A stretch of DNA of 64,000 nucleotides from IMG/VR virus record IMGVR_UViG_3300042885_001472. One strand, given 5' to 3'. The DNA comes from a virus (lineage: Duplodnaviria; Caudoviricetes). Below, one piece after another: positions 2,552 to 49,378 of this stretch. The notes under the pieces were generated by a model that did not search any database, was not told where the DNA came from, and was given only the letters and a program-made list of their open reading frames with translations. The position numbers and the translations under genes were made by a program. How positions within the stretch are numbered: the first letter of the stretch is position 1; each line of letters opens with the position of its first letter.

Positions 2552-2581
2552 TGGTGGATACTATTAACTTTTTATTTTAAT

Positions 2582-2611
2582 AAAAGGATGGGTTATCTCA
2601 TCCTTTTTTTT
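2582..2611 (+). terminator. Rho-independent terminator
   Basis: AAAAGGATGGG-TTAT-CTCATCCTTTT stem (one G-U pair) followed by a T-run, just after the 516-aa gene. Confidence 0.8.
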
Positions 2612-2692
2612 ATTAAGACATATTTATCTTTAGGTTATATAACCATTAAAACATAAACTCTATATAGAGTAGAATTATTTTAAACCATCAAT

Positions 2693-3400: not shown

Positions 3401-5771
3401 GAAAAATAAATTATTATTAAAAGGTTCAAATGTACCAGGTAAAGTACCTAGTGATGGTGATTTAGAATTAAAAGAATTGGCACTAAATTTTGCTGATGTT
3501 ATTTTATACGCTTCTGGTACTACCGCAAATTCTATAATACCAATCGGATGGGATCGAGTAGCTAGAACTGGTGATATTATGACTGGCACTCTATACGTAC
3601 CAAGTATATCTGCCACAACAATTTCAGCGACAACTTTCTATGGTGACGGACAATATTTAACAGGTATTAATGATTATTATGTAACAGGTGGAACTTTTAG
3701 TGGGACTACCTTAACATTAAATAGACAAGATGGTTCTATATTAGTAACTGGTTTTACATCTACTTCAGTTGATACATACACAACTGGGTTTACATATTCA
3801 AACAATAATTTAACAATATTACAAAATAATAACCAATCCCCATTAAATGTAAATATATCATTAATGACTGGTTTAACGGTTAATGGGAATTCTAATTTTA
3901 ATGTAGTAACCGCGACATCAGTTAGTAATTTAAATTATATTATTTTTAATACTGGTACAACAAGTGGTACTACCCTACCAGGTACTGTTTATTTTGATAA
4001 TACTGAAAAAGCGTTATCGTATAACACATCAATTAATCAAGGTGTTACGGTAAATTTAGGTCAACAAAATTATATACGAGTTTTTAATAATAGTGGTGTA
4101 GATATACAAAGGGGTAAAGCGTTAGAAATATTATCAGCCTATAATGGTTTACCATCGGTAATCTTAGCGATAAATAAACATGAAGGTTTTAGTATCATAG
4201 GTATGTCCGCTGAAATAATTCCTAATAATACTGAAGGGATTGTTATCACTAGTGGTATTATTAGTAATATAGAATTAACTGGTATGACGGTTGGTTCACT
4301 GATGTACGCTTCAGATAGTATTCCTGGTAATATAGATGAGGCTAGTAAATATTTCACATTTCCTTTAACCGCTAGAACAAATAGTGTTGGTTATGTTATT
4401 CAAACAGGTAGTACTACCGGAAAGTTATTTGTTAATATAGAAAATGAAAATCCTATACTATCTTTTACCGATTTAGAGAGAAATGTATTAGAAGGTAATG
4501 TTATATCTACAGGTGTATTTGAGTTTAAAGGTATTTCAATATCAACCGGTAATACATTTAATGTTGGTAGTGTAGAAGCTTATATAGTAGACAATACATC
4601 AAATCCATTAAAACCAAACGCTTTATATGTACCATTTATCGGTCAAAGTGGTTTAACTACACCCTATCTAACAACTGATACCGAAACATATATTTTATTA
4701 ACAAGTGGTGGGACAATATCATTACAACCAACATTCCCAACACCACAACAAAGAAGATTATCCATTTATTTAGGTAAATTAGGTCATGGTAATAAAACAT
4801 CACTTATTAACGCTTTTAATGAACCAGATTTAGATATTTCACCATTATCACAACTTCGTGATGTGTTCTCACCAATTAAACTTATAAATGATGGGGTTGT
4901 AAGTAGTCCAAATGGTGTTAATTTAAATTTTAACACAAGTGCTGGTTATATTTGGGGGTTAGGTATTAATTTCGTTAACGATGTTTTAAATCCAAGTCGT
5001 TTTACCGTACCTTCTAATAGTCCAACAACATTTCAATATAGAACACGGACTGGAGGAACAGCTTCAAATACAACTCTAGTTATACCAGGTAGTTATGATC
5101 TAAATGGTGTCATTACACCTGTTGGAACGCCCGCAAAACAAGCTACAAACCAAAGGATATTCTTATTACAAAATGGTCAAATTAGGTTACAATATGGTCA
5201 ACAAAAATATATTGATTTACCCACAGCAATAGCTGCCACACAAAATGAAAATTTTACGACATTTGCTAATTTTAGAGATAACGCTATTCTTATAGGTGTT
5301 TTATCATTACGTTCAGACGCAACTAATTTATCAAGTACTAGTCAAGCTTTATTTCACATAGTATCTAAATTTGGTGAACTTGGTGGTGGTACTGCAGGTA
5401 TATCTACAACAACACTTCAACAAGCCTACAATAATTCATCTAACCCAGAGATTATAACAAACCCAACACAAAATAGTGTTCAATTTCGTGGTGGCACTGG
5501 TAATGATACAGATAAAACTATTACACTTGAAAATAACATAGGTACTCCAACAGCTTGGATTTTAGGTGATGGTGGTGCCACGTTTAGTTCAGTTTCAGCG
5601 ACAACTTATTATAATTTACCAACAACTGTTGATACATATACTACTGGATTTACCTATTCAAATAACAATCTAACCATAAGTCAAAATCAAGGTCAATCTC
5701 CATTAACAGTTAATATTTCATCTATAACAAACTCAGCTACAAACTTATTTAACTATTATAATTTTATATAA
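3390..5771 (+). CDS. Tail fibre-like structural protein (793 aa)
   Basis: N-terminal KVPSDGDLELKELALNFADVILY (Mtd N-terminal-like, paralogous to 1001..2551); Thr/Gly-rich; duplicated DTYTTGFTYSNNNLTI module. Confidence 0.6.
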   Translation: MSVRKNKLLLKGSNVPGKVPSDGDLELKELALNFADVILYASGTTANSIIPIGWDRVARTGDIMTGTLYVPSISATTISATTFYGDGQYLTGINDYYVTGGTFSGTTLTLNRQDGSILVTGFTSTSVDTYTTGFTYSNNNLTILQNNNQSPLNVNISLMTGLTVNGNSNFNVVTATSVSNLNYIIFNTGTTSGTTLPGTVYFDNTEKALSYNTSINQGVTVNLGQQNYIRVFNNSGVDIQRGKALEILSAYNGLPSVILAINKHEGFSIIGMSAEIIPNNTEGIVITSGIISNIELTGMTVGSLMYASDSIPGNIDEASKYFTFPLTARTNSVGYVIQTGSTTGKLFVNIENENPILSFTDLERNVLEGNVISTGVFEFKGISISTGNTFNVGSVEAYIVDNTSNPLKPNALYVPFIGQSGLTTPYLTTDTETYILLTSGGTISLQPTFPTPQQRRLSIYLGKLGHGNKTSLINAFNEPDLDISPLSQLRDVFSPIKLINDGVVSSPNGVNLNFNTSAGYIWGLGINFVNDVLNPSRFTVPSNSPTTFQYRTRTGGTASNTTLVIPGSYDLNGVITPVGTPAKQATNQRIFLLQNGQIRLQYGQQKYIDLPTAIAATQNENFTTFANFRDNAILIGVLSLRSDATNLSSTSQALFHIVSKFGELGGGTAGISTTTLQQAYNNSSNPEIITNPTQNSVQFRGGTGNDTDKTITLENNIGTPTAWILGDGGATFSSVSATTYYNLPTTVDTYTTGFTYSNNNLTISQNQGQSPLTVNISSITNSATNLFNYYNFI
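3768..3860 (+). repeat. Copy 1 of a 31-codon intragenic repeat (copy 2 at 5628..5720)
   Basis: VDTYTTGFTYSNNNLTILQNNNQSPLNVNIS vs VDTYTTGFTYSNNNLTISQNQGQSPLTVNIS; DNA differs mostly at third codon positions. Confidence 0.9.
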
Positions 5772-6483: not shown

Positions 6484-8466
6484 ATGGCAGCTAGAACGGT
6501 TAGTATATTAGGTGGAAATTGGAATGCAACAGCAACTTGGGTTGGTGGTGTAGTTCCTCTTGTTGGAGATACAGTTGATTTTACAGCATTATCTGGACCT
6601 CTTGTTGTTAATATAGCAACGGTTATTTTAGCTGGTATAAATTTTACTAATTATGTTAATACAATTACTTTTAATAATATTATCCAATTAAATGGAAGTT
6701 TAAATTTAGGAACAGGTGGTTACACACAAGCTGGAGCAAGTGGATTATGGTTACTTGGTAACACAAGTATAAGTGGAACTACTGTTTGGACTAGAACATT
6801 TACAGTATCTATAGGCTCTGCTGTAACATTTACTTTATCAAATAACTTAAATTTAACTGATTTATCATTAACTGGTAATGGTGGTTTATTAAGTTTTATA
6901 TTAGGTGGAAATGTAGTATCAATATCTAATAATATATCTTTTTTTGGAAATGGTTCATTTACCTTAAATATTCCTAACGATTTACAAATAACCAATCTAT
7001 TACTTGGTGCTAATAATGCTCGTACTTGTGTTATAAATGGTTTTACTTTATCTATATCTGGTAATTTAACTCAAAGTCAAGGCATATTCATAACATCTGG
7101 TACGGCATCAATTTTATTAAATGGTACTGGAACTTGGAGTAATACTAGTACAGGAGCTTTAAGAAACAATTTAACAATTGATACTGCTGGAACAATTACA
7201 ATAAGTGGAACTGTATATTTTAATTCAGCAACAATTACCTATATTCAAGGGAATGTTATAACAACAGGAAGTACCTTGGTTATAGCTGGTATAACTACGT
7301 TAAATTGTGGAAATATGAATGATATAATTACAAATAAATGGAATAATATTGTTTCTGCGTCTGGAGCTTATGTGTTAATTAGTGATTTAAACTGTCAAAA
7401 TTTTACAGGAGGTGGTGGTGCTGTTACTTTTACTAATTCTGGAGGAAATATTTTTATCTCTGGTAATTTATTACATAATAGTAGTGGTGCTATATTAGGT
7501 ACAGCAAGTATTAATTTAATTGGTACAGGAACTTGGACTGATACAACTACAAATGACATAAGAAGTAACTTAAATATTAACACTACAGGAACAATTACTA
7601 TAGTTGGTAATATTGCTTATAGTGTAGGAACTTTAACATATATTTCTGGAACAGTAGTTACTACAAGTTCTACATTAACTCTTGGTAATGGAGCAATTTT
7701 AGATACAAATGGAATTACGTGGAATAATATTATTCCATCTGGGACTGTTACTTTGACAAGTGATTTATATTTTAGTGGTTTATTTGCAAATTCAGCAGCT
7801 AGTGCTTTTAATATAAATGGTTCTAATATTTATTGTATGAGTGGAAAATTACAAGGTTTAGGTAATGGTATTATATTTTCAGGAACTTCTACTTTTATTT
7901 TTAAAGGTGATTCAAGTTTTTTTACACAATATTCAGGATTTAATCTTGCTTTAAATACAATAATAGATTGTAATACACTCACTTTAGCAAGTAATAATAC
8001 AACTCAATTTTCATCATTTAGTACAAAAACATTAACTTATGTTAGCGGTAAAATAAATAAAAGAGCATATTTACAATTACTTTCAAATTGTACATTAATT
8101 AATTTTAATAAATGTATAATAGATAATATTGTAATAACAACTGGACAAATTATAACTATGAATGAGTTTTTTAGTGGTAATCCAAGTAAAATTATAAAAT
8201 TAACATCAACAAGTCTATCAACAAATTATACAATAGCCTTTCAAAATGGTTTTGAAAAAATAGCAAAATTTGTTGATATTAATAATTGTACATTATCAAA
8301 ACCACTACAATTATTGGTTATTACTAATAGTCCAAGAAATTCAACTAATAGAGGTATAAGATACATCAATCAAAGTCCAAATGGGATAGCTAAAAATAAT
8401 CCAAGTATTAATGTTCCTATGACATTTGGTGCAGGGGGATTATTATCTGATCCAAATATGAGGTAA
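6484..8466 (+). CDS. Putative beta-helix/beta-solenoid receptor-binding or tailspike-like protein (660 aa)
   Basis: GGNWNATATWVGGVVP N-terminus (G8/autotransporter-like); repeated LNGTGTW...NLTINTxGTITI.G units; almost no charged residues. Confidence 0.5.
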   Translation: MAARTVSILGGNWNATATWVGGVVPLVGDTVDFTALSGPLVVNIATVILAGINFTNYVNTITFNNIIQLNGSLNLGTGGYTQAGASGLWLLGNTSISGTTVWTRTFTVSIGSAVTFTLSNNLNLTDLSLTGNGGLLSFILGGNVVSISNNISFFGNGSFTLNIPNDLQITNLLLGANNARTCVINGFTLSISGNLTQSQGIFITSGTASILLNGTGTWSNTSTGALRNNLTIDTAGTITISGTVYFNSATITYIQGNVITTGSTLVIAGITTLNCGNMNDIITNKWNNIVSASGAYVLISDLNCQNFTGGGGAVTFTNSGGNIFISGNLLHNSSGAILGTASINLIGTGTWTDTTTNDIRSNLNINTTGTITIVGNIAYSVGTLTYISGTVVTTSSTLTLGNGAILDTNGITWNNIIPSGTVTLTSDLYFSGLFANSAASAFNINGSNIYCMSGKLQGLGNGIIFSGTSTFIFKGDSSFFTQYSGFNLALNTIIDCNTLTLASNNTTQFSSFSTKTLTYVSGKINKRAYLQLLSNCTLINFNKCIIDNIVITTGQIITMNEFFSGNPSKIIKLTSTSLSTNYTIAFQNGFEKIAKFVDINNCTLSKPLQLLVITNSPRNSTNRGIRYINQSPNGIAKNNPSINVPMTFGAGGLLSDPNMR

Positions 8467-8528
8467 AAGTATCTAATTACAAATAATTCTTTAAATTTTC
8501 AATAAAAAAGTTCTTTCTGTTTACTCTA

Positions 8529-8537
8529 TATATTTAT
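8529..8537 (+). promoter_or_regulatory. NATATTTAT putative phage (late) promoter element before the sheath gene; representative of about 16 copies
   Basis: Same motif 5-70 nt upstream of starts at 980, 2619, 11424, 14651, 15245, 16956, 19988, 23214, 30859, 31851, 36504, 42200, 44443, 44870, 61139. Confidence 0.6.
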
Positions 8538-8573
8538 TATTAAAACAATAATATTTAAACAAAAAAATTAATA

Positions 8574-11363
8574 ATGGCAGGAAATAGAGTATTTGTAAGT
8601 CCGGGTGTCTATACATCAGAACTTGATTTAAGTTTTATCGCTAGACAAGTTGGGGTAACAACCCTAGGGATAGTGGGTGAAACACCTAAAGGACCGGCGT
8701 TTGAACCGGTTTTCATAAGTAGTTATGATGAATATCAAACAATTTTCGGTGGTTTAAACCCCGAATTGTTCAGAGCAACTGGTTATCCAAAGTATGAGAC
8801 CAATTATATCGCAAAAGGATATTTAACACAATCAAGTCAATTGTTTGTGACGAGAGTTTTAGGTTTATCTGGTTATGACGCGGGTGACGCTTGGTCAATT
8901 AAAATTGACGCGGCTTTAGATACATCAACCGTAGTTTGTTATTCAACTGGTGTTACTACATCAACTTTTAGTGTAACTACTGGTGGTACTATAAATTCAT
9001 TTGTATTTTCTGGTCATGGTGATACTGAATTAAACGCTGTTTATAATGATGGGTTATTTAACTCTTATTTAGTTGGATTAGAAGATTCAACCATGTTAAC
9101 AACACTTACCGCGAGTACGGAATATGTTAAAACTGGTTCTGTTTATAATGGTGGTAATTTTGATTTATTAGTAACTTCTGTTGGTTCAGATGGTTTAGGT
9201 AATATTACTGGTTCAACTACAGGTACATCTGTTATTTGTAGTGGTACTTCTTACGCGGATGTTGATGGTATGGTTATCGCAACATTACGTTCTGAAGCTA
9301 CTTATGATGTGAATGAATTAATTACATTCTCAGTTGTTAACCCAGGTATCACATTTGATACCTCAGTTACTGACGCTGAATATGATCCTTATGGTACATT
9401 TGTAGTTAGTGGTAACACAACCGCTGGTGATTCAATTTATTTTGAAGCGTCAATGGATAAAACTAAGAAAAATTATTTAATTAGAGTATTAGGTCAAGCA
9501 CCATTCCAAAATCAACAACCTTTATTTGTAGAAGAGATTTATGATAATATGTTCGCATCTCTTGTTGAACAAGGTAAAGTTAAAGGTATACAATTAGGTT
9601 TTGAATATGTAACTAATTTAGATAATTATTTAACTGAATACAGATCAGCTGTAACCCCTTGGGTTGTTTCTGAGGTTAGAGGTAATAAAGTATTTAGATT
9701 ATTTAGATTTATCACGATTTCTGATGGTGATGGAGCTAATAAAGAAATAAAAATTTCTGTACAAAATATTAACCTTGAAGATTTAGAATTTGATATCGTA
9801 ATTAGAGATTTTTATGATACAGACGCGAGTCCTTCTATCTTAGAAAGATTTAGTAAATGTTCAATGGATTCTACTAGTACAAATTATATCGCAAGAAGAA
9901 TTGGTACAAATGATGGGTTCTTCCCATTAAGAAGTAGTCGTGTTATGGTTGAGATGGCTGAAAATCTTGTAGAAGACGCAATTCCGGCTGGATTTGAAGG
10001 ATTCTTAACAAGAGAATACAATACAACATTACCTCCAATTATGACTTACAAAACTGATTACTTAATTACTGAAAAAGTAAGAAAAGTGTATCTTGGTGTT
10101 TCTAACACTGTGGGTATTGATCAGGATATGTTTGATTTCAAAGGTTTACAAAGTAATGTTGGTGGTTCTGAATGGACTGGTGTAACTAAAGGATTCCATA
10201 TGGATGTTAACGCTACTGGTGTTACTGTTGATGGTCAAAGTTCAGCTATTACATTTGATGTTGGATGTTGTCCAATGCAAACACCAGCGTCAGTTGTTAA
10301 TACAGCTTACGAAAAAATACAAGCTAGAAAGTTCACATTCGCACCATTTGGTGGGTTTGATGGATGGGATATCTATAGATCAAGAAGAACGAATAGAGAT
10401 ACTTACAAAGCTACCGGTACTAAAGGTGTGGCTGGAGTAACTTCAGGGATCTTTACAACTAGACCAACAAGTGATGGTCAAAATGGTATCACTTCTGATT
10501 ACTACGCTTATTATGAAGGTATTAAAACTTTCTCTAACCCAGAATCTGTTAACATTAACGTATTCACTACCCCAGGTATCGATACTGTTGATAATAATGA
10601 TTTAGTTGGTGAAGCTATTGATATGGTAGAAACTGAACGTTGTGATTCATTATATATTGTTACTACTCCAGATACTTCTGGAACTGGAACAGATGTTTAC
10701 ACTCCAGAAGATATCGCGGATACATTATATGGTGAATTTGATAGTAATTATACAGCGACTTACTGGCCTTGGTTACAAATGAATGATACGGAGAATAATG
10801 TATATATTTGGTTACCACCAACCGGTGAAGTTGTAAGAAATATCGCTTTAACTGACAATGTAGCTTTCCCTTGGTTTGCGACAGCAGGTCTTAATAGAGG
10901 TGTTACTAACGCGATTAAAGCTCGTTTAAAACTTAAACTTTCTGATAGAGATGGTTTATATGATAATAGAATTAATCCAATGGCGACATTCTCTGAAGAG
11001 GGAGTAGTAATTTGGGGTAATAAAACATTACAAATTAAAGATTCAGCTCTTAACCGAATCAATGTAAGACGTTTATTATTACAAGCTAGAAAATTAATTT
11101 CAGCAGTATCAATTAGATTATTATTTGAACAAAACGATCAGATTGTTAGAAATCAATTCTTAACATTAGTTAACCCAATTCTTGAGAATATCAGAAAAGA
11201 AAGAGGTTTAACAGACTTTAGAGTTCAATTAAATGATACTCCAGAGTCAATTGACAGAAATGAGTTGAATGGTAGAATTTTCTTAAAACCTACACGTTCA
11301 TTAGAATTTATCTTTATAGAATTCGTTGTAACCCCAACAGGAGCTTCTTTTGAAAACTTGTAA
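8574..11363 (+). CDS. Contractile tail sheath protein (T4 gp18-like)
   Basis: FVSPGVYTSELDLS N-terminus; YTATYWPW; VVIWGNKTLQ...LNRINVRRLL; IDRNELNGRIFLKPTRSLEFIFIEF C-terminus. Confidence 0.97.
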   Translation: MAGNRVFVSPGVYTSELDLSFIARQVGVTTLGIVGETPKGPAFEPVFISSYDEYQTIFGGLNPELFRATGYPKYETNYIAKGYLTQSSQLFVTRVLGLSGYDAGDAWSIKIDAALDTSTVVCYSTGVTTSTFSVTTGGTINSFVFSGHGDTELNAVYNDGLFNSYLVGLEDSTMLTTLTASTEYVKTGSVYNGGNFDLLVTSVGSDGLGNITGSTTGTSVICSGTSYADVDGMVIATLRSEATYDVNELITFSVVNPGITFDTSVTDAEYDPYGTFVVSGNTTAGDSIYFEASMDKTKKNYLIRVLGQAPFQNQQPLFVEEIYDNMFASLVEQGKVKGIQLGFEYVTNLDNYLTEYRSAVTPWVVSEVRGNKVFRLFRFITISDGDGANKEIKISVQNINLEDLEFDIVIRDFYDTDASPSILERFSKCSMDSTSTNYIARRIGTNDGFFPLRSSRVMVEMAENLVEDAIPAGFEGFLTREYNTTLPPIMTYKTDYLITEKVRKVYLGVSNTVGIDQDMFDFKGLQSNVGGSEWTGVTKGFHMDVNATGVTVDGQSSAITFDVGCCPMQTPASVVNTAYEKIQARKFTFAPFGGFDGWDIYRSRRTNRDTYKATGTKGVAGVTSGIFTTRPTSDGQNGITSDYYAYYEGIKTFSNPESVNINVFTTPGIDTVDNNDLVGEAIDMVETERCDSLYIVTTPDTSGTGTDVYTPEDIADTLYGEFDSNYTATYWPWLQMNDTENNVYIWLPPTGEVVRNIALTDNVAFPWFATAGLNRGVTNAIKARLKLKLSDRDGLYDNRINPMATFSEEGVVIWGNKTLQIKDSALNRINVRRLLLQARKLISAVSIRLLFEQNDQIVRNQFLTLVNPILENIRKERGLTDFRVQLNDTPESIDRNELNGRIFLKPTRSLEFIFIEFVVTPTGASFENL

Positions 11364-36530: not shown

Positions 36531-37931
36531 ATGACAAATAAAAGTACAGACAGTTTAGGTTATTTAGGTCACACATTTCAATTAAAATTATTAAATCAGA
36601 TATTATTAGATGATAAGTTTTCATCAACGATAATCGATGTTTTAGATCCAACTTATTTTGATAATGAATACCTTAGATTAATTTCTAGTAAAATTAAAGA
36701 TTACCACGAAAAGTATGAAACAATACCAGAGGTTAACACTTTAGAACAAATGTTAATCGTTGAGATTAAAAGAGAAGTTACCAGACAACATACTTTAGAC
36801 TTATTAAATGAGGTTAAAGATATATCTCAAAAAGATAGTATTTATACCCAAGAAACTGGGTTGATGTTTTGTAAACAACAGGAGTTAAAAAAAGCTACTA
36901 AGAAAATTCAAAAAATTCTTGATATGGGTGATTTTGATCGATACCAAGAATGTGAAGAAATACTTAAACAAGCTTTAACTGTTGGTAATTTAAAAGATAA
37001 TGGGGTTGATATTTTTAGTGGTATTGATGATGTATTATCTGATGACTTCAGAAATCCAATCCCAACCGGTATTCATGGGTTAGACAATCTAATGGATGGT
37101 GGTTTATCTAAAGGTGAGTTAGGTGTTATATTAGCCCCATTTGGTGTTGGTAAAACAACTATGGTAACTAAGTTAGCTAATACAGCGTATAACTTAGGAT
37201 TTAATGTAGTCCAAATATTCTTTGAGGATAATCCTAAAGTAATACAGAGAAAACATTTTACGTGTTGGACTGGTGTTGAGTTAAATAAATTAAATGAAGA
37301 AAGAGAACGAGTTAAGTTTGAGGTTGAGAGTATTAAAGAAAATTCAACCGGAAACCTAATTTTAAAGAAATTCCCAAGTGATGGTACGACAATACCACAC
37401 ATCAAACAATACCTTAGAAAATTAACATCTGATGGGATTAGACCAGATATCGTATTACTTGATTATATTGATTGTGTACAACCATCTAAACGAGTTGATG
37501 ATGTAAACGTTGGTGAAGGTAATGTGATGAGAGAATTTGAATCTATGATTGATGAGTTAAGTCTTGTTGGTTGGACTGCGATACAAGGTAATAGAGGTTC
37601 AATTGGTGCTCAAGTAGTTGAAGCTAATATGATTGGTGGTTCTATTAAGAAAGGTCAGATTGGTCACTTTATAGTTTCTATAGCTAAAACATTAGATCAA
37701 AAAGAAGAGGGTAGAGCTACTATGGCGATTCTTAAATCTAGATTTGGTAAAGATGGTGTTATATTTGAAGATATTGTTTTTGATAATGGAACAATTTGTA
37801 TTGATACTACATCTTCAAGTGATGTTTCTTTCTTAAGTTTTGAGAAGGGGTTAGATAAAAAGAAATCAAATAGAATACAAGATGCTCTTAAACTAAGAGA
37901 AGAGTTTTTAAATAAAAATAAAAGTAATTAA
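36531..37931 (+). CDS. dnaB: DnaB/T4 gp41-like replicative helicase
   Basis: [35 protein letters not shown] (Walker A); FFED; IVLLDYID (Walker B); WTAIQGNR; ILKSRFG. Confidence 0.92.
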
Positions 37932-37932
37932 T

Positions 37933-38883
37933 ATGGAACCAATACTAGTAACAAATCCTGATAGGTTTGTATTATTCCCAATTGAACATCAAGATTTGTG
38001 GGAATACTACAATATTGAAAAAGCTGCGATGTGGACAGCTGAAGAATTAGATTTATCAAAAGATATTGATCATTGGGAAAACAAATTAACTGATAATGAA
38101 AGATTTTTCATTAAAAATGTATTGGCTTTTTTCGCCGCGTCTGATGGTATTGTAAATGAAAATTTAGCTATCAATTTTTTAAATGAAGTACAATATACTG
38201 AAGCTAAGTTTTTTTATGGGTTTCAAATTATGATGGAGAATATACATAGTCATGTGTATTCTTTATTGATTGACACTTATATAAAGGATATTAAAGAAAG
38301 ACATAAATGTTTTAAGGCTATTGAGTACATGCCACCGGTTAAGAAGAAGGCTGATTGGGCTTTGAAATGGATTGAATCAGAATCATTTGTTGAAAGACTA
38401 TTAGCTTTTGTGGCGGTAGAAGGTATATTTTTTAGTGGTTCTTTTTGTAGTATATTCTATTTAAAGTCTAGAGGATTAATGCCGGGGTTATGTGATAGTA
38501 ACGCTTTCATATCAAGAGATGAAGCCTTACATTGTGATTTCGCGATACATTTATTAAACAATCATATTGTTAATAAACCATCTAAAGAAAAAATAAAGGA
38601 GATATTATTATCTGCGTTAGATATTGAAAAAGAATTTATATTAGAATCATTACCAGTATCACTTATTGGTATGAACGCTGATTTAATGAAACAATATTTG
38701 GAGTTTGTTGTTGATGGTTTACTATCAACACTCAATTGTGAAAAAGTATTTAACACAAAAAATCCATTTGAATTTATGAATCAAATTGCGTTAAAAACAA
38801 AACAAAACTTTTTTGAGGGGAGATCTACAGAATATAAAGCCGCTGATTTATCAGGACCAATATCATTTGACGAAGAAATTTAA
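37933..38883 (+). CDS. nrdB: Ribonucleotide reductase class Ia beta subunit
   Basis: FVLFPI...[11 protein letters not shown]...[12 protein letters not shown]...MENIHS..Y...EGIFFSGSF...ISRDEALH...NFFE. Confidence 0.97.
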
Positions 38884-38903: not shown

Positions 38904-40469
38904 ATGCGAGTAATAAAAAGAAATGGGTCTAAGATTGATTTCAACCCAAATAAAATTTTAACTAGAATAAAAAAACAAGCGGAAGGGTTAAAAATAAATG
39001 CTGATGAAGTATTTCTTAAAGTTACTCAAGGTATTGCTGATAATATGACAACCGATGAAGTTGATGATTTAATTTCAGTTGTGTCAGAATCATTAGCTAT
39101 GAATCATCCAGACTATTCTAAGTTGGCCGCTAACATATCAATTAGTAAATTACATAAAGAAACTGAAGATTCTTTTATGAAGGCTACTAAAAGATTATAT
39201 AACGCTGGTTTATTAAATGATTTCTATTATAATAAAGTAAAAGAAAATATTGATCTGATTGAATCAGTAATTGATTATAAAAGAGATTATAGATTTGATT
39301 ATTTTGGATGGTGTTCACTTAAAGATATCTACTTATTAAAAATTGGTGATGAAATAACAGAAAGACCACAACACCTATACATTAGAGTAGCTTTAATGGT
39401 GACTAATAACCCTACTGATTTTAAAGAAAAGTATGAAGATTTAAGTTTACAAAGGGAATCTCCAGCTACGCCTATAAAAATTAATATTGGTACTAATATA
39501 GGACAAATTGCGTCATGTAATTTATCTATAGTTCCGGATGACTCAACTGAGGGGTTATTAAGTATGTTAAATAGAATATCAGTATCATCATCTAAAGCTG
39601 AAGGTATTGGTTTAGCTATATCTAACATTCGTTCAAAGGAAAGTAATGTTGGACAATCAAATGGTAAAGCTGGTGGTATTTTAAAATATTTAAAAGTTGT
39701 AAATGAAGCTTTAAGATTTTGGAATCAAAGAGGTAAACGACCTGGATCTTGCGCTGTTTATATTGAACCTTGGCATAAAGATGTATTTGATATTTTGGAT
39801 ATTAGAAAGAAAACTGGTGATGAAACACTTAGAGCACGAGATTTATTTTCAGCGTTATGGATACCGGATAACTTTATGAGAGCTGTTGAATCAAATGGGG
39901 ATTGGTATTTGTTTTGTCCTAATGACATTAAACAAGCTGGTTTAAAACCATTTTATGATATCTATGGTGAAGAATATGAGTTAGAATATAATAAGGCTGT
40001 TGAGATGGGTTTAGGTACTAAAATCAAAGCTCACGATTTGTGGTTAAGAATTATTGAATCACAAATTGAAAGTGGTATGCCTTATATGTGTTTTAAAGAT
40101 CATGCGAATAATAAATCAAATCAAAAGAATTTTGGTGTTATACATTCAAGTAACCTATGTTGTTTACATAGTGACACATTAATTACGATTATGTATGGTA
40201 ATGGTGAGATTAGAGAAGTAACTATGAAAAATGTTGTTGAAGAAATTAAAAAGGATAAAAATATAAAAGTTTTAAGTCAAGATAATATTTTTAGACCAAT
40301 GTTGGCTGCTGCGAAAATGAAATCAAACGCTGAAATTATAGAAGTTAGTGATGATGAGTTAGGGGTAAAAATAGTTTGTACACCAGATCACCAAATATTA
40401 ACAAAAAACAGAGGGTATGTTATGGCCGGTGAATTAAATGAAAATGATGAATTAATTATTAATAAATAA
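38904..40469 (+). CDS. nrdA: RNR class Ia alpha, fragment 1: N-extein (419 aa) + split-intein IntN1
   Basis: ATP cone MRVIKRNG; IASCNL; GIG..IS.IR; QRGKRPGSCAVYIEPWHKDV; ...SSNLC then intein sequence to the stop. Confidence 0.95.
   Translation: MRVIKRNGSKIDFNPNKILTRIKKQAEGLKINADEVFLKVTQGIADNMTTDEVDDLISVVSESLAMNHPDYSKLAANISISKLHKETEDSFMKATKRLYNAGLLNDFYYNKVKENIDLIESVIDYKRDYRFDYFGWCSLKDIYLLKIGDEITERPQHLYIRVALMVTNNPTDFKEKYEDLSLQRESPATPIKINIGTNIGQIASCNLSIVPDDSTEGLLSMLNRISVSSSKAEGIGLAISNIRSKESNVGQSNGKAGGILKYLKVVNEALRFWNQRGKRPGSCAVYIEPWHKDVFDILDIRKKTGDETLRARDLFSALWIPDNFMRAVESNGDWYLFCPNDIKQAGLKPFYDIYGEEYELEYNKAVEMGLGTKIKAHDLWLRIIESQIESGMPYMCFKDHANNKSNQKNFGVIHSSNLCCLHSDTLITIMYGNGEIREVTMKNVVEEIKKDKNIKVLSQDNIFRPMLAAAKMKSNAEIIEVSDDELGVKIVCTPDHQILTKNRGYVMAGELNENDELIINK
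40161..40469 (+). mobile_element. Split intein 1, N-half (102 aa)
   Basis: Block A CLHSDTLIT; block B IVCTPDHQIL; TKNRGYV..ELNENDEL then TAA; no endonuclease domain. Confidence 0.93.
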
Positions 40470-40470
40470 G

Positions 40471-40569
40471 ATGATAAAAATAAAAAAATTAGAAGAAAAA
40501 ATTGATGTATATGATATACAAGTAGAAGAAACTAGTAATTTCTTTGCTAATAATATATTAGTACATAAT
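40471..40569 (+). mobile_element. Split intein 1, C-half (33 aa)
   Basis: MIKIKK...block F VYDIQVEETSNFFAN, block G ILVHN, +1 Ser (TCC at 40570). Confidence 0.93.
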
Positions 40570-41457
40570 TCCGAAATTATGGAGGTAACTGATAAAGAAA
40601 CCACCGCCATCTGTACGCTAACGTCAATACCGGTTCAAAAATTTGTCATAGATAATGAGTATGATTTTAATGAATTAGGTCGTGTTACACGATCAATAAC
40701 AAAATCACTTAATATTGCGATAGATGTTAATGAATATTCAACTAAAGAAGGTAGAAAAGGTGGTTTAGAACAAAGAGCTTTAGGTATTGGTATCCAAGGA
40801 TTAGCTGACACTTTCGCTATGTTACGATTACCATTTGTATCTGAAGAAGCTAGATCATTAAATAAAAAAATATTTGAAACAATTTATTATAACGCTTTAA
40901 GACAATCTTGTGATTTAGCGAAAGAAACTGGATTAACTTATGATTTTTATGAAGGATCTCCAATTTCAAAAGGTATTTTCCAATGGGAAATGTGGGGTGT
41001 TGATGAATCTGAATTGAGTGGTATGTTTGATTGGAAACAATTAAGAAAAGATATTAAAAAATATGGTGTTAGAAACTCACTTGTCACGACCTGTCCGCCA
41101 ACCGCAAGTTGTCAAGTTATTGATACTAGAATACATACTGAAAATGGTGTTAAATCATTTAAAGATTTACTAGTTGAAAATGGTGTTGATTATGTTAAAT
41201 TAGAAGAATCTAATGAACAACAATGGGTTGAATTTAAAACACCTATAAAAGTAAAAACTTATAATGGGTATGAAGATGTAAGTCAAATAAAATATAATGG
41301 TCATTCTGAAGTTTATAAAATTGAAATGGAAGATGGTTCTATATTTGAAGCAACACCTAACCATAAATTTAGGATTAAAAGAGGTGATACTGAAATTTGG
41401 GTTAAAGTTGAGGATTTATTAACTACGGACGATATTATAAATATTTTTGAAAAATAA
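40471..41457 (+). CDS. nrdA: RNR alpha, fragment 2: IntC1 + middle extein (180 aa) + IntN2
   Basis: SEIMEV...AICTL...RALGIGIQGLAD...GVRNSL.TT.PPTAS flanked by intein halves. Confidence 0.93.
   Translation: MIKIKKLEEKIDVYDIQVEETSNFFANNILVHNSEIMEVTDKETTAICTLTSIPVQKFVIDNEYDFNELGRVTRSITKSLNIAIDVNEYSTKEGRKGGLEQRALGIGIQGLADTFAMLRLPFVSEEARSLNKKIFETIYYNALRQSCDLAKETGLTYDFYEGSPISKGIFQWEMWGVDESELSGMFDWKQLRKDIKKYGVRNSLVTTCPPTASCQVIDTRIHTENGVKSFKDLLVENGVDYVKLEESNEQQWVEFKTPIKVKTYNGYEDVSQIKYNGHSEVYKIEMEDGSIFEATPNHKFRIKRGDTEIWVKVEDLLTTDDIINIFEK
41110..41457 (+). mobile_element. Split intein 2, N-half (115 aa)
   Basis: Block A CQVIDTRIHT; block B FEATPNHKF; WVKVEDL...DDI then TAA. Confidence 0.88.
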
Positions 41458-41488
41458 AATAAGTAATCTAATAAAAACAAAAAATAAA

Positions 41489-41593
41489 ATGAAAATAAAA
41501 AGTATAATTAAAAACGGAGTTAAACCAACTTGGGATATTGAAGTACCAAATGTTCATCATTATATAATGGAAAATGGTTGTGTTAGTCATAAT
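41489..41593 (+). mobile_element. Split intein 2, C-half (35 aa)
   Basis: MKIKSI...block F TWDIEVPNVHHY, block G VSHN, +1 Ser (TCG at 41594). Confidence 0.88.
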
Positions 41594-42106
41594 TCGGCCC
41601 GTGTCATAGGTTCTAATGAAGCTTTTGAACCGTTTACTTCTAATTTATATGTTCGTAAGGTAACTGGTGGTGAATTCGCTATGGTTAATAAACATTTGGT
41701 TAAAGATTTAGAATTAGAAGGGTTATGGAATAGGGACATTCTTAATGAATTGATAAAAAATGATGGTAGCGTTCAATCAATCCCAGTTATTAGTCAAGAA
41801 ATGAAGGAAAGATATAAAACTGTTTGGGAGATATCACAAAAATCTCTTATTGAAATGTCGGCCGAAAGAGCTCCATTCATTGATCAATCTCAAAGTCTTA
41901 ACATATTTTTCGCCACACCAACGGTTGGTAAATTAACTACCTCACACACATTAGCTTGGAAGTTAGGTTTAAAAACTGGTCAATACTACCTAAGAAGTCA
42001 ACCGGTAGAAATGAAAGGTAAACATTTAGCTATTGATATGGGTAAACAAATTAAACCTGAGAAACCTACTGATAGTCAATTTGAATGTTATGGTTGTAGT
42101 GCGTAA
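41489..42106 (+). CDS. nrdA: RNR alpha, fragment 3: IntC2 + C-extein (170 aa); ATG 41489 preferred over TTG 41447
   Basis: SARVIGSNEAFEP; IDQSQSLN; GLKTGQYYLR; C-terminal CYGCSA redox pair. Confidence 0.92.
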   Translation: MKIKSIIKNGVKPTWDIEVPNVHHYIMENGCVSHNSARVIGSNEAFEPFTSNLYVRKVTGGEFAMVNKHLVKDLELEGLWNRDILNELIKNDGSVQSIPVISQEMKERYKTVWEISQKSLIEMSAERAPFIDQSQSLNIFFATPTVGKLTTSHTLAWKLGLKTGQYYLRSQPVEMKGKHLAIDMGKQIKPEKPTDSQFECYGCSA

Positions 42107-42137: not shown

Positions 42138-42172
42138 AAACTAGGGAAAATATCTCTAGTTTTTCTTTTTTT
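42138..42172 (+). terminator. Rho-independent terminator after nrdA
   Basis: AAACTAGGG-AAAATAT-CTCTAGTTT followed by a T-rich tract. Confidence 0.7.
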
Positions 42173-42212
42173 AAAAATATACAAATATTTTTTATTGTAT
42201 ATATTTATAGTA

Positions 42213-42593
42213 ATGGCTAAACAGTTTATTAACATAAGATACCCCTTTATAAATAGTCCGGAAGGATTTTTCTTAGATTTAACGACAACAACTATTGATG
42301 CGGTTAAATCTGATTTACAACATCTTTTATTAACTGAAAAGGGTGAGAGATTTTATTTACCAGATTTTGGAACAAATTTAAAAAGATTTTTATTTGATCC
42401 AAGTGACGAAAAAACATTGGCAGATATTGAAGATGACCTTAAAGTAACGGTTACTAAATATTTACCAGGATTAACTATAACCGGAGTAAAATTATACTCT
42501 GAAGATGATCAAAAAGGTGTCGCTGTTAGAGTTCATTTTACCATTGGTGATGGTATTTTCTCTAGTAGTGATTTCATAGAAATTAACGTATAA
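42213..42593 (+). CDS. Baseplate wedge protein, gp25/GpW-like (ATG 42213 preferred)
   Basis: VKSDLQHLLLTEKGERFYLPDFGTNLKRFLFDP. Confidence 0.9.
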   Translation: MAKQFINIRYPFINSPEGFFLDLTTTTIDAVKSDLQHLLLTEKGERFYLPDFGTNLKRFLFDPSDEKTLADIEDDLKVTVTKYLPGLTITGVKLYSEDDQKGVAVRVHFTIGDGIFSSSDFIEINV

Positions 42594-44893: not shown

Positions 44894-47800
44894 ATGTCTA
44901 AATCCATTAGGATAAATACAACACCTCTAGGGAATGATAAACACTTAAAAGTAAAAATTGATCAAGATTTTGATTTTTTAGAGATTTTAAGTTTAAAAAT
45001 AACCCAAACTGAAGCGTACACTAAGTATTGTTCGGATTATGGTGTTGTAGTTGGTAGAGTTGTAGTTAATAACGGATTTGGTATTCCAAACGCTAAAATT
45101 TCTATTTTCATCCCATTAGCGGAAGAAGATAAATCAAGACCAGAGATTAATGGGTTATATCCATTTGAAACTATTTACACTAAAGATTATAAGGGGATTA
45201 GATATAATTTATTAAGTAATGAACCAAGACCAGATGATGAATGTCACGTTGCGGTAGGTACTTTCCCAGATAAACGACAAGTTTTAGATTGTGGTACAAC
45301 TTTGGAAGTATTTGAAAAATATTATAAGTTTACTACTACTACTAATAGTGCGGGTGATTATATGATATTCGGTGCTCCAGTTGGAGAACATACAATTCAT
45401 ATTGATGTTGATTTAAGTGATATAGGATTTATTAGTCAAAAACCTTATGAATTAATTGGTCAAGGTTTTAGTAAAAATTTATTTGCGAGTAATAGTCAAT
45501 TTAAAACAGGACAAAATTTAGATGTATTAAGTCAAATAAAAAGTAGAAATACTAGTGCGAGTGTAATTCCATTTTGGGGTGATTTAGAAGAATGTGAAGT
45601 TGGTATTACAAGAGTAGATTTTGATTTAAATTATGATATAATACCCACAGCGATTTTTATTGGGAATATTTTTGGTGATAATGAAAAAAATAGTGTTAAT
45701 AAAAGATGTAGACCTAGAAGAAAATTAGGAAATCTTTGTGAAACTGTTACCGGTGAAGGGACTATTGAAATGATTAGAAAAACACCGGAAGGACTTATAG
45801 AAAAGTTTTCGGTGGATGGTGATAATTTAATTAATGAAAATGGTGTTTGGTGTTATCAAATACCAATGAACTTAGATAAGTTAGTTACTGATGAGTTTGG
45901 TAATTTAGTACCATCAGAAGATCCGGAAAAGGGTGTACCAAGTAACGCTAAAGTTAGATTTAGAGTTGCTATGAATGAAACTGGTGATACTGGTAGAATA
46001 CGTTCTAGAGCTAAATTTTTAATACCGAATAGAGGTCTTGATTATAATTTTGATGATTCAACACCAGATACTGAATTCGCTGATTTAAGGTGGAAAAAAG
46101 TGTATACTGTTAGACAATTTATTGCTCGGTATCAAAAATATTGTGAGACAAAAGTTTGTGGAACTAAAAGATCTTTTATTGGTATAAAGGATGTTGATGA
46201 TTGTGGTGATCATACACCATTCCCATACAATAGAATTGATACTGATTTAAATCCGTTATATAGTATTATATGTTTAATCGTAACTATATTAATGACATTA
46301 ATAGAATTAATTAATGTAAGTTTAATTAGATTACTTAACATTGTTATAGGTGCTTTAAATGCTATACTTTGTTTTATTTGTAATATTATCTACGGATTAG
46401 GTCAATTTATTGACTCTATTGTTAGTGCCATTAATGGTCTTATCCCTGGTAACGGACCATTAAGTTTTAATGTTTGTAATTTTTGTATTGGTACTGGTTG
46501 TTGTACTTGTGGAAGTATAATGAATTATATGTCATGTATTTCTATTAAGTGTGATGAAAAATCATTCGCACCAGGGTGTTATAAACCATCATCATGTTCT
46601 TTACCAAGTGGTTGTAGTATACCATCAGATGTAGATAAACTTGGATGGTGTACGGCTAATAGTGGTCAACCACCAGAAAACTATCCTGGCGATGGTGTTA
46701 CTAATCAAATTGATTGTGGATCATATAACGCGAGTGATGCTCATGGGTGTTGTGGTCCCGCGGGAAGTGGTTTTATTCCATTCGCTGGCGCTATGGATTG
46801 TATTGAAATACAATTAGCGAGAGCTCTAAATGTTTTTAAATTTGATTTTTATAATGATTGGATTAATGGTAGTCTTTACGCTTTTTTATTCAAATATAAA
46901 GTTAGAAGAAAAAAGAGTAAAAAAAGAACTGTAGAAAAGTTTTGTGAATATGATTGTCACGACACGTATGAAAGTGATACAGATTCACCGGAACATAAGT
47001 ATAATAAGTGTAGAGATAATTTATTCTTAGTTGATACTTGTGTTGCTAACGATAATAACCCTATTAGTTTTAATAAGGTTGGTATAGATGAAGGTATTAT
47101 AAAAGAACATAAAGATGAATTATATTATGCTGCGATGACACATGATACCGCCAACTTATTATACGCTACAGATATAACTTGTCTTGGTAGTGCGGTTAAT
47201 TGTGATATTGATGGTAGACAAAAAATAGTTACTTATTTAGTTAACACTTCATATAAAATGCCACCAGATACAGCTGAATTAGATAGTAATAATGTTTTGG
47301 AAACTACCGCGATAGACCCATTATTATTATCTTTAAATTGTTTTAGGGTTAAAGTTGAAGATTATAATTGTAAAAATATTAAAAGAATTTGTGAAATTGG
47401 TATTGGTTTGGATGAAAATAGAGTTGATGATACACCACCGGGGGTAGCCGCTAATTGTAATATTGAAATATTTGATAGTCCAATTACTATCGCCACAACG
47501 GAAGAATTAGAAGGTGAATTTTTAAGAAATGAATTAGGTTCTTGTGCTACTGGAATTTATCAGTTTGATTGTACACAAGAACAAACAGATTACAATATAT
47601 TTAGAGGGTATAATAATCCAAACCCATTGGGGCTACCAACAGAAAATTCATATTTTTATTATTTTGGGATTAATCCTGGTAAGAGTGCGTTGGATTGTGC
47701 TATGGCCTCATATTTTGTCCCTTGTAAGCGAGATAAACAAAATCAAATCCCAGCTCAAATTACAACTATAGATAATACTTGTAATAATCAAAACGCTGGT

Positions 47801-49378
47801 TCTGTTACCGTTAATCTATTAGGTGGTAAAGAACCATTTACGTACACATTTGCTGATACTAATTCTAATTCAATATTAGGAAGTCCTTCATCACCAACAA
47901 CATCTAATTTTATATCATTCACTAATCTATTTGCTGGTTCATATCAATTAAGTGTGACCGATAAATATGGTGATAATTCATTATACAATATCAATATCAA
48001 TGAACCATTAAGTTTAATTGCTGTACCAACAAGTGTACAAAATACAACATCACCTATTTTAAGTAATGGTAGTATAGATATTAATGTATTTGGTGGTAAT
48101 CCACCTTACACATATCTTTGGTCGCCAGGTGGACAAACAACACAAGATTTGTCTGGAATTGGTGTTGGTGTTTACAATGTAACCATTAAAGATACTGCGA
48201 CACCTACTTGTAGTCAACAGACTATAACATTAACTGGGTTAACTATAGCATCACCTTCTGCGTTGAATTTTAATTATACAACAGTACCATCTAGTTGTTA
48301 TAATCAAGGTGATGCACAAATAGTGTTATCAAATATTACCGGTGGAACTTCTCCATATACAATATTTATTAATGGAACATTAACTACAAGTAGTATTGGT
48401 AATTTAACTGGTAATACTAGTGGTATACCATATACAATAACAGTTTATGACTCAACATCAGCACAAACTGTGACACAAATTGTTACTTTAACATCACCAC
48501 CTTTATTAACAGCAACAGCAGTACCTGGTACTATTTTATGTAATGGTTGTACCACTAATATTACTGTTAACCCTAATGGTGGAACATCACCATATACTTA
48601 CAAATGGAATGATTCAAATAATCAAACTACACAAACAGCCCTTAATTTATCTGAAGGTACTTATGTGTGTATGATAAAAGACGCTAAAGATTGTGAATAT
48701 AAAGTTACAACTACAATCACAGCACCACCAAAATTAGATATAAATAATGTATTTGTAACTAATGCGGTTTGCTTTAATGGCACAGCTCAAGTTAGTTTTA
48801 ATCTTGCTGGCGGTACTGGTAATTTAAGTTATGCTATATACAATGCCGCATTAAATACAACTTTAACACCGACTTGTAATAATTGTAATACACCAACAAG
48901 TACACCATGTACTTCATCTTGTGTATCATCACCTGGTACATTAGCGCAACCAATAACTAGTAATGTAACACCTGGGACTTATACATTTAATATACCGCAT
49001 ATTATGATTAGTAAACAATATTATATGGTGGTAACTGATACTAATGGTTGTAAAACTTGTACAACATTTATTGTAACATCACCACCACAATTATCTGGTT
49101 TATTTACATATAATTTAACTAATAGTATACCGTTTAAACAATATTCATTAAATATTACTGGTATAGGTGGGACTTTAACTACATCGTATACTATTAATTT
49201 ATATAATAGTGTTTTAGGTAATACTAATTGTAATCTTAGTACAACTCCAATAACACCTAATAGTTTTACACCAACAACTAAAGATTACATAAATTTAGGT
49301 AGTGGTGAATATATAATACAAATAAAAGATGATAATAATTGTCTATGGTGTAGTTCAACGTTCACTTTACCCTCATAA
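44894..49378 (+). CDS. Large Cys-rich baseplate/fibre-associated protein with SprB-type repeats
   Basis: N-terminal carboxypeptidase-regulatory-like VVVGRVVVNNGFGIPNAKISIF / TNSAGDYMIFGAPVG; C-terminal GGNPPYTYLWS and GGTSPYTYKWND repeats. Confidence 0.6.
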   Translation: MSKSIRINTTPLGNDKHLKVKIDQDFDFLEILSLKITQTEAYTKYCSDYGVVVGRVVVNNGFGIPNAKISIFIPLAEEDKSRPEINGLYPFETIYTKDYKGIRYNLLSNEPRPDDECHVAVGTFPDKRQVLDCGTTLEVFEKYYKFTTTTNSAGDYMIFGAPVGEHTIHIDVDLSDIGFISQKPYELIGQGFSKNLFASNSQFKTGQNLDVLSQIKSRNTSASVIPFWGDLEECEVGITRVDFDLNYDIIPTAIFIGNIFGDNEKNSVNKRCRPRRKLGNLCETVTGEGTIEMIRKTPEGLIEKFSVDGDNLINENGVWCYQIPMNLDKLVTDEFGNLVPSEDPEKGVPSNAKVRFRVAMNETGDTGRIRSRAKFLIPNRGLDYNFDDSTPDTEFADLRWKKVYTVRQFIARYQKYCETKVCGTKRSFIGIKDVDDCGDHTPFPYNRIDTDLNPLYSIICLIVTILMTLIELINVSLIRLLNIVIGALNAILCFICNIIYGLGQFIDSIVSAINGLIPGNGPLSFNVCNFCIGTGCCTCGSIMNYMSCISIKCDEKSFAPGCYKPSSCSLPSGCSIPSDVDKLGWCTANSGQPPENYPGDGVTNQIDCGSYNASDAHGCCGPAGSGFIPFAGAMDCIEIQLARALNVFKFDFYNDWINGSLYAFLFKYKVRRKKSKKRTVEKFCEYDCHDTYESDTDSPEHKYNKCRDNLFLVDTCVANDNNPISFNKVGIDEGIIKEHKDELYYAAMTHDTANLLYATDITCLGSAVNCDIDGRQKIVTYLVNTSYKMPPDTAELDSNNVLETTAIDPLLLSLNCFRVKVEDYNCKNIKRICEIGIGLDENRVDDTPPGVAANCNIEIFDSPITIATTEELEGEFLRNELGSCATGIYQFDCTQEQTDYNIFRGYNNPNPLGLPTENSYFYYFGINPGKSALDCAMASYFVPCKRDKQNQIPAQITTIDNTCNNQNAGSVTVNLLGGKEPFTYTFADTNSNSILGSPSSPTTSNFISFTNLFAGSYQLSVTDKYGDNSLYNININEPLSLIAVPTSVQNTTSPILSNGSIDINVFGGNPPYTYLWSPGGQTTQDLSGIGVGVYNVTIKDTATPTCSQQTITLTGLTIASPSALNFNYTTVPSSCYNQGDAQIVLSNITGGTSPYTIFINGTLTTSSIGNLTGNTSGIPYTITVYDSTSAQTVTQIVTLTSPPLLTATAVPGTILCNGCTTNITVNPNGGTSPYTYKWNDSNNQTTQTALNLSEGTYVCMIKDAKDCEYKVTTTITAPPKLDINNVFVTNAVCFNGTAQVSFNLAGGTGNLSYAIYNAALNTTLTPTCNNCNTPTSTPCTSSCVSSPGTLAQPITSNVTPGTYTFNIPHIMISKQYYMVVTDTNGCKTCTTFIVTSPPQLSGLFTYNLTNSIPFKQYSLNITGIGGTLTTSYTINLYNSVLGNTNCNLSTTPITPNSFTPTTKDYINLGSGEYIIQIKDDNNCLWCSSTFTLPS

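Follow-up and report, generated by a model that had tools for sequence, protein, structure and literature searches.

Two split inteins predicted to assemble a phage class Ia ribonucleotide reductase large subunit from three polypeptides

NrdA, the large (alpha) subunit of class Ia ribonucleotide reductase (RNR), is encoded at positions 38904-42106 of a 64,000-nucleotide stretch of viral DNA, IMG/VR record IMGVR_UViG_3300042885_001472, which as a whole is referred to here as the window. We report that this nrdA is spread over three open reading frames (ORFs) of the + strand, each in its own reading frame, and that both breaks lie between an N-terminal intein half (IntN) and a short C-terminal intein half (IntC). 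A preliminary description of the DNA had proposed this arrangement, and the ORFs, the motifs and the Pfam matches agree with it. Based on sequence comparisons, we consider it likely, at a probability of about 85%, that the locus is a doubly "fractured gene", the three polypeptides of which would be joined by two canonical trans-splicing reactions, and that both of its homing-endonuclease genes have since been lost.

Results

Three ORFs encode one seamless NrdA

The three ORFs divide into exteins and intein halves as follows.

38904-40469, + strand: piece 1 ORF, 521 amino acids, extein 1 and IntN1
38904-40160, + strand: extein 1 of NrdA, 419 amino acids, comprising ATP-cone, all-alpha domain and the beginning of the barrel; ends in SSNLC with the thiyl-radical Cys
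40161-40469, + strand: IntN1, 102 amino acids (40161-40466) plus TAA; Cys1, block B TPDH
40471-41457, + strand: piece 2 ORF, 328 amino acids, IntC1, extein 2 and IntN2
40471-40569, + strand: IntC1, 33 amino acids, ends in LVHN followed by Ser; matches Pfam Intein_splicing positions 124-155
40570-41109, + strand: extein 2 of NrdA, 180 amino acids; begins with SEIME (E441 equivalent), ends in PPTAS
41110-41457, + strand: IntN2, 115 amino acids (41110-41454) plus TAA; Cys1, block B TPNH
41458-41488, + strand: A-rich spacer separating pieces 2 and 3, 31 nucleotides, from the junction DNA read directly
41489-42106, + strand: piece 3 ORF, 205 amino acids, IntC2 and extein 3
41489-41593, + strand: IntC2, 35 amino acids, MKIK...CVSHN, followed by Ser
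41594-42106, + strand: extein 3 of NrdA, 170 amino acids plus stop; begins with SARV; YY pair (GQYYLR) and C-terminal CxxC

Removal of the intein halves gives a computed product of 769 amino acids (419 + 180 + 170) and 87.3 kDa, in which SNLC-SEI and PTAS-SAR are restored. Intein-free relatives, L014 and L004 among them, have exactly these junction sequences. The two predicted junction peptides are tryptic, and those given in the preliminary description were reproduced from the computed product. The exteins cover positions 1-213, 213-396 and 393-523, respectively, of Pfam Ribonuc_red_lgC, and extein 1 additionally matches Pfam ATP-cone and Ribonuc_red_lgN. In alignments with known protein structures, exteins 1, 2 and 3 correspond to residues 1-428, 430-610 and 612-748 of yeast Rnr1, with neither gap nor overlap. 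Similarly, extein 2 aligns with residues 431-606 and extein 3 with residues 608-745 of human RRM1, and the alignment of piece 1 with Escherichia coli R1 spans residues 7-439. The computed product and the yeast and human alignments thus bear out the earlier proposal of seamless exteins that rejoin as SSNLC-SEIME and PPTAS-SARV to a protein of 769 amino acids.

All features of a class Ia NrdA are present, namely the ATP-cone, the all-alpha domain, the ten-stranded barrel with its NxCxE loop, the YY pair, the CxxC motif and a partner NrdB. According to motif position in the spliced product, the equivalents of C225 (in ASCNL), N437 and C439 are located in piece 1, and those of E441 and C462 (in AICTL) in piece 2; these assignments follow the E. 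coli numbering. Together with the R1 alignments, they confirm the proposed dispersal of essential residues over all three pieces.

The ORF listing contains no stop or frameshift inside any extein or intein half. Junction 1 reads AAA TAA G ATG, with a spacer of 1 nucleotide, and junction 2 consists of TAA, the A-rich spacer and the ATG at 41489. Between its intein halves the window has these two spacers only and no free-standing homing-endonuclease gene; the 31 nucleotides at junction 2 are too short for any gene, so that a homing endonuclease is absent there. The ORF-listing program had placed the start of piece 3 at TTG 41447, which would give 219 amino acids. We rejected this start in favor of ATG 41489 because the IntC2 piece begins at an aligned Met (MKIK...) in nine relatives, most of which have a stop a few codons upstream.

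Two different split inteins

Intein 1 is inserted directly after the thiyl-radical Cys (between SNLC and SEI) with Ser as the +1 residue. Its halves, taken as IntN1-X-IntC1, match the NrdJ-1 split intein (PDB 8ubs) with an E value of 1.6e-23, and in this alignment the break coincides with the junction of the NrdJ-1 halves. Among relatives, homologous intein 1 alleles occupy two adjacent insertion points: either between NL and C(A/S)EI, where the catalytic Cys is the +1 residue, or between NLC and SEI or CEI (window 40146-40581; L009/L010, L001, L003).

Intein 2 is inserted between PTAS and SAR. IntN2-X-IntC2 shows similarity to the DnaE inteins Npu and Ssp (E value 5e-6), and the alignment crosses the break and reaches the terminal Asn. 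IntC2 is 69-94% identical in nine relatives. An AlphaFold2 (AF2) model of intein 2 was computed on an alignment (A3) bridged by a contiguous allele, P0033, and the top 50 PDB matches of this model are all HINT domains of inteins or hedgehog proteins. Two other alignments, A1 and A2, were discarded; in these, MAFFT had aligned IntN's second half with the columns of IntC, perhaps as a result of the mutual likeness of the HINT-domain halves. The HINT fold is thus supported by the 8ubs match for intein 1 and by the DnaE sequence matches and the AF2 model for intein 2. According to the PDB alignments, the break of each intein lies at the canonical split site, after the block B region and before the C-terminal blocks, and that of intein 2 is presumably near the natural split position of DnaE inteins.

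Identity between the two inteins is only 23%, and a tblastn search of the 64-kb window found no further copies of the four intein halves. The insertion point of intein 2 shifts by one residue among alleles, from between TAS and S to between PVA and SS. In P0033 (residues 212-364), intein 2 is a contiguous mini-intein of 153 amino acids, in which a short linker replaces the stop, gene and start of the others. This allele shows that split and contiguous forms interconvert within the intein 2 family.

Splicing residues are conserved

A search with piece 2 yielded 496 proteins, and layout and residues were checked in the best 120 of them. Among these 120 matches, the full IntC-extein-IntN layout was found in 43 middle pieces, counted as one per 90%-identity cluster, at identities down to 43%. 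The architecture is more than chance because the same layout recurs in 43 distinct middle pieces. All 43 keep the terminal HN of IntC1, Cys or Ser at position +1, Cys1 of IntN2 and its block B His. The latter two residues are invariant in 28 sequences, and the block B Thr position is occupied by Thr or Ser in relatives. In the loci examined, the splicing residues of IntN1 and IntC2 are conserved to the same degree; Cys1 and the block B His of IntN1 are retained in eight relatives, and intein 2 ends in SHN followed by Ser or Thr in relatives that were read beyond the junction.

In unsaturated comparisons, the ratio of nonsynonymous to synonymous substitutions (dN/dS) ranges from 0.15 to 0.30 in the intein halves and is approximately 0.07 in the exteins, which indicates that the halves of both inteins are under purifying selection. 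The inteins have a lower dS than the exteins, at 0.04 as opposed to 0.26 in the comparison with L004. This fits elements that move between genomes yet are selected to work.

The breaks recur in independent metagenomes

At least 23 metagenome runs from freshwater or lakes, dating from 2016 to 2024, contain the stretch. Logan contigs from four runs (2016, 2020, 2024) span both junctions with zero differences, and for at least two of these four runs the sample carries no flag as a possible source of the window DNA. Thirteen contigs are recorded with the middle piece of the window itself, and the longest of these has 294,686 bases. In relative L010, two stops upstream of the IntC2 ATG close that frame, and the frame offset between pieces 2 and 3 is not the same in L009 as in L010. 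Consequently, neither a homopolymer error nor a conserved programmed frameshift explains break 2. A contig of run X10 joins position 40457 to 41434 and skips 976 bases, which would delete the middle piece; this joint has weak support, with 21 letters on its shorter side, and probably reflects a repeat-like joining error at the ends of the two IntN halves, which are similar.

Close relatives differ in inteins and inserted genes

Relatives with exteins 81-99% identical to those of the window show all possible states. Many IMG/VR loci carry no intein. Only intein 1, with a GIY-YIG gene, is present in L004 (99% identical), and only intein 2, with an insert of approximately 1.1 kb, in L005-L008 and L013. 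Both inteins occur with a gene in each gap (L087, and likewise the more distant L089, L090 and L091, exteins 44-55% identical), with one of the gaps occupied (L009, and also the more distant L003) or, as in the window, with no gap genes (L010-L012). In an extein tree, well-supported branches force at least five changes for the state with both inteins, a count to be read with caution because the assembly-derived loci were chosen for carrying the middle piece. The inteins appear to be mobile, given that close relatives carry neither, one or both of them, with or without nuclease genes. The preliminary description had suggested a search of phage metagenomes for three-part nrdA loci, and this layout is indeed widespread in uncultured large phages.

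Inserts at site 1 are GIY-YIG/NUMOD nucleases (L004, L087, L089, L091), and the site-2 insert of L001 is a homing endonuclease of phrog_3339. An ORF of 1.1-1.5 kb is located exactly at break 2 in L003, L006, L087, L089 and L091. Four of these site-2 gap ORFs, which encode 426-494 amino acids and have no Pfam match, are positioned as follows.

L003: 6048-7529
L087: 5030-6412
L089: 5041-6525
L091: 4990-6270

The ORFs of L003, L087 and L091 match only phrog_22677, a family of unknown function, and that of L003 had no match in the PDB. By eye, the C-terminal portion of the site-2 gap ORFs resembles a Vsr-like nuclease motif. From sequence and from their position, at which a homing endonuclease would be expected, these ORFs are candidate members of an uncharacterised family of homing endonucleases.

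A third split HINT element is located in nrdA, between VDQ and GGG, in the 252-kb relative L001 (1527-4106) and also in L002 and P0078. In L001, its IntN ends piece 1, and its IntC is encoded on an ORF of 68 amino acids, in which it is followed only by GGGK and a stop; after a gap of 285 nucleotides, the next piece begins with MKRKGS. In P0078, the IntC is fused in frame to GGGRRKGS. The +1 residue of this element is Gly instead of Cys, Ser or Thr, so that canonical splicing is impossible, and it may be a docking-only or cleavage-only domain.

Cultured phages carry related inteins

Klebsiella phage KP13-7 (OP617745), a jumbo phage of the genus Alcyoneusvirus, has split inteins at the same two nrdA sites and a middle piece of the order IntC1-extein-IntN2. 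The three-piece layout is thus apparently not singular to the window or to uncultured large phages. KP13-7 differs from the window in an additional, intein-less break with an ORF bearing an HNH-like motif (by eye) and in carrying GIY-YIG-like and HNH-like ORFs where its inteins are split. Its nrdA pieces are annotated as hypothetical proteins, and its middle piece is 29% identical to that of the window.

Campylobacter phages were considered as earlier examples of a double split and rejected: the Firehammerviruses CPt10 and vB_CcoM-IBB_35 have one split intein in nrdA together with contiguous ones, and in the Fletchervirus PC14 intein 2 is contiguous. The mini-inteins of PC14, CPt10, vB_CcoM-IBB_35 and P0033, inserted between PTA and S/T, share family and insertion point with intein 2, and the window IntC2 DNA matches PC14 at 75% identity. 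In contrast to the split intein 2 of the window, the contiguous mini-inteins would splice in cis, so that CPt10 and vB_CcoM-IBB_35 would need one trans-splicing step. In the PC14 locus (L085), three paralogous "Hef" homing-endonuclease genes (1837-5091, 6520-7602) flank a truncated nrdA piece, which begins past site 1 without an IntC. By eye, these genes resemble the 498-amino acid ORF between the intein 2 halves of L001.

Genomic context

Four further features of the window surround the nrdA pieces.

36531-37931: helicase, 466 amino acids, intein-free
37933-38883, + strand: nrdB (RNR small subunit), directly upstream of nrdA; Pfam Ribonuc_red_sm, E value 1.3e-102
42138-42172, + strand: terminator-like hairpin and T-run just 3' of piece 3, from a consensus scan only, function not implied
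44894-49378: SprB-type repeat protein, 1494 amino acids, after the baseplate genes

The order of nrdB followed by the nrdA pieces is also found in L003, L004, L087, L089 and L091, and nrdB and the nrdA pieces are probably in one operon. The consensus scan detected no terminator-like site between the nrdA pieces. A baseplate gp25-like gene follows nrdA in relatives; by synteny only, the window ORF at 42195-42593 is assigned as gp25-like. The L004 counterpart of the SprB-type repeat protein has a weak Pfam SprB match, and this protein hints at a Bacteroidota host. The GC content is 29%, and among phages the closest DNA matches are to those of Tenacibaculum and Cellulophaga. In combination with synteny, the SprB-type protein and the 294,686-base contig, these data suggest that the window derives from a large phage of freshwater Bacteroidota.

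On the 163-kb phage-like contig L089, an IS605 OrfB/TnpB-like gene (Cas12f1-like_TNB; 7349-8593) lies directly 3' of nrdA piece 3. The gene upstream of nrdB in L089 (1-241) and L091 (1-261) has a product of 814-841 amino acids with LAGLIDADG/Hom_end matches, which is probably a DnaB-like helicase with a contiguous intein.

Discussion

In the proposed pathway, the three ORFs would probably be co-transcribed with nrdB, and translation of piece 2 would probably begin by termination-reinitiation at TAA-G-ATG. After translation, IntN1 at the end of piece 1 would pair with IntC1 at the N terminus of piece 2, and IntN2 at the C terminus of piece 2 with IntC2 of piece 3. Each rebuilt HINT domain is expected to follow the class 1 splicing route, that is, acyl shift at Cys1, attack by the +1 Ser and cyclisation of the terminal Asn. 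The outcome would be a single NrdA with native junctions. Piece 2 carries both IntC1 and IntN2, so that the inteins would have to be orthogonal, as cross-reaction would lead to cyclisation or omission of piece 2. Splicing, intein orthogonality and translational coupling are what we infer from this arrangement, and the same applies to co-transcription, because the only terminator-like site follows piece 3, and to the inactivity of the unspliced pieces, because a domain of 135 amino acids would separate the C439 and E441 equivalents. In RNR, C439 and E441 form the active site.

Several observations weigh against this proposal. IntC2 had no match in the Pfam scan of the window, and the AF2 model of intein 2 has a mean pLDDT (predicted local distance difference test score) of 69, with values below 50 in its IntC2 part. 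The net charges of IntN1 (-4), IntC1 (-2), IntN2 (-8) and IntC2 (+1) give by themselves no clear indication of how partners would be distinguished. Upstream, piece 3 has a frame that stays open to 41441 in the window, so that a single +1 shift could fuse pieces 2 and 3. The single metatranscriptome run contained 6% of the sampled words.

It is also conceivable that the intein halves do no more than dock non-covalently and that the three chains form an active RNR without splicing. In Aeromonas phage Aeh1, NrdA is split without an intein and works as two chains, and the element with a +1 Gly described above indicates that association-only halves may exist in the nrdA family. However, docking needs neither Cys1 nor the block B His, the terminal Asn or a +1 nucleophile, all of which are kept in 43 clusters. 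Docking alone would also leave the 135-amino acid domain between the C439 and E441 equivalents, with the steric consequence that we expect, and NrdJ-1, the closest solved homologue, is a fast trans-splicer. We thus regard this alternative as improbable. A sequencing artefact within contiguous mini-inteins, or read-through of break 2 by a programmed +1 frameshift, is less probable still. Such an explanation could draw on the location of both junctions in A/T-rich runs, on the overlap of the piece 3 frame with the end of piece 2, on the existence of a contiguous intein 2 allele (P0033) and on one low-depth contig of run X10 that has a 1-base deletion at 40489. Against it, every junction combines a stop, a change of frame and a new ATG, contigs of three different years are identical at the junctions, and the middle piece is found on 13 contigs. 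The stops before the IntC2 ATG of L010 and the differing frames of L009 and L010 are equally at odds with it, as are the ORFs of 1.1-1.5 kb that other relatives hold exactly at the break points.

Interrupted nrdA genes of Campylobacter phages have been interpreted as degenerating and broken by selfish elements (Dwivedi 2013, PMC3653736), and the CPt10 record annotates its nrdA as disrupted. Applied to the window, this would make nrdA a decaying pseudogene, which we consider the least credible of the explanations. The extein dN/dS of approximately 0.07 in comparison to relatives, the intact catalytic motifs, the uninterrupted frames of all exteins and intein halves and the intact adjoining nrdB all contradict decay.

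A regulatory variant of the trans-splicing proposal would be that two obligatory splicing steps gate deoxynucleoside triphosphate synthesis post-translationally, and that the inteins are a co-evolved orthogonal pair. RNR might then be active only once all three pieces have accumulated and conditions permit splicing. For example, the adjacent Cys residues at junction 1 (catalytic Cys at -1 and intein Cys1) could trap the precursor under oxidising conditions. We view such a gate as unlikely.

If confirmed, the doubly split nrdA would have implications beyond this phage. The family comprises dozens of diverged intein pairs obliged to avoid cross-reaction within one protein, from which compatible tools for protein ligation could readily be drawn; NrdJ-1, a relative of intein 1, is among the fastest inteins known. 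Empty, singly invaded and doubly invaded alleles, with or without nucleases, in closely related phages provide a view of the homing cycle. Such loci are labelled as hypothetical proteins or as pseudogenes, as in KP13-7 and CPt10, so that surveys of phage RNRs probably undercount functional genes. KP13-7 is cultured, and the trans-splicing claim is thus directly testable.

The known system most similar to intein 1 is NrdJ-1 (8ubs), which has a homologous sequence, the same break position and the same insertion point. The host protein of NrdJ-1 is a class II NrdJ, by contrast with the class Ia NrdA here, where IntC1 has 33 amino acids. NrdJ-1 is a naturally split intein with ultrafast trans-splicing (Pinto 2020, PMC7090010), and the NrdJ insertion point is described in an earlier study as one residue past the classic NrdA site, with Ser at +1 (Dassa 2009, PMC2677866). 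For intein 2, the Npu and Ssp DnaE inteins (PDB 2keq, 4kl5, 1zd7) are the nearest solved relatives and share Cys1. They are nevertheless only distant relatives and reside in a different host protein, Pol III alpha. The halves of DnaE inteins are encoded far apart on a cellular chromosome.

Among split phage RNRs, the NrdA of Aeh1 differs from that of the window in that it has no intein and its pieces remain separate chains. Crona 2010 reportedly deals with this split NrdA and its mobE insertion. According to Dassa 2009 (PMC2677866), the Aeh1 protein works as two chains, and its gene was broken into separate genes by a mobile nuclease. The fractured genes presented there (NrdA-1 to -7, NrdJ-1/-2, gp41-1 to -8 and IMPDH) are similar to the window in that a phage-type DNA-metabolism gene is split by an intein, at the thiyl-Cys loop in the case of RNR. 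In that text they have a free-standing nuclease between the halves, as do relatives of the window (GIY-YIG or other) but not the window itself, which in this respect resembles the nuclease-less fractured gene gp41-7. As far as that text describes them, these loci have one fracture each, whereas the nrdA of the window has two and thereby gives rise to a middle polypeptide of the order IntC-extein-IntN.

Full-text searches of an open-access library yielded no description of a natural gene with two split inteins, and within that scope they support the statement of the preliminary description that it knew of no described natural case. A counterpart is engineered tandem trans-splicing, a technique already well established in the laboratory, in which at least three segments are joined by two orthogonal split inteins through a middle segment flanked by IntC and IntN (Pinto 2020, PMC7090010; Humberg 2025, PMC12707363). 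The window shares this logic. If its splicing is confirmed, it would be a natural counterpart, in an essential enzyme, to the laboratory assembly of three segments by two inteins, the one being laboratory-built and the other a natural locus kept by selection.

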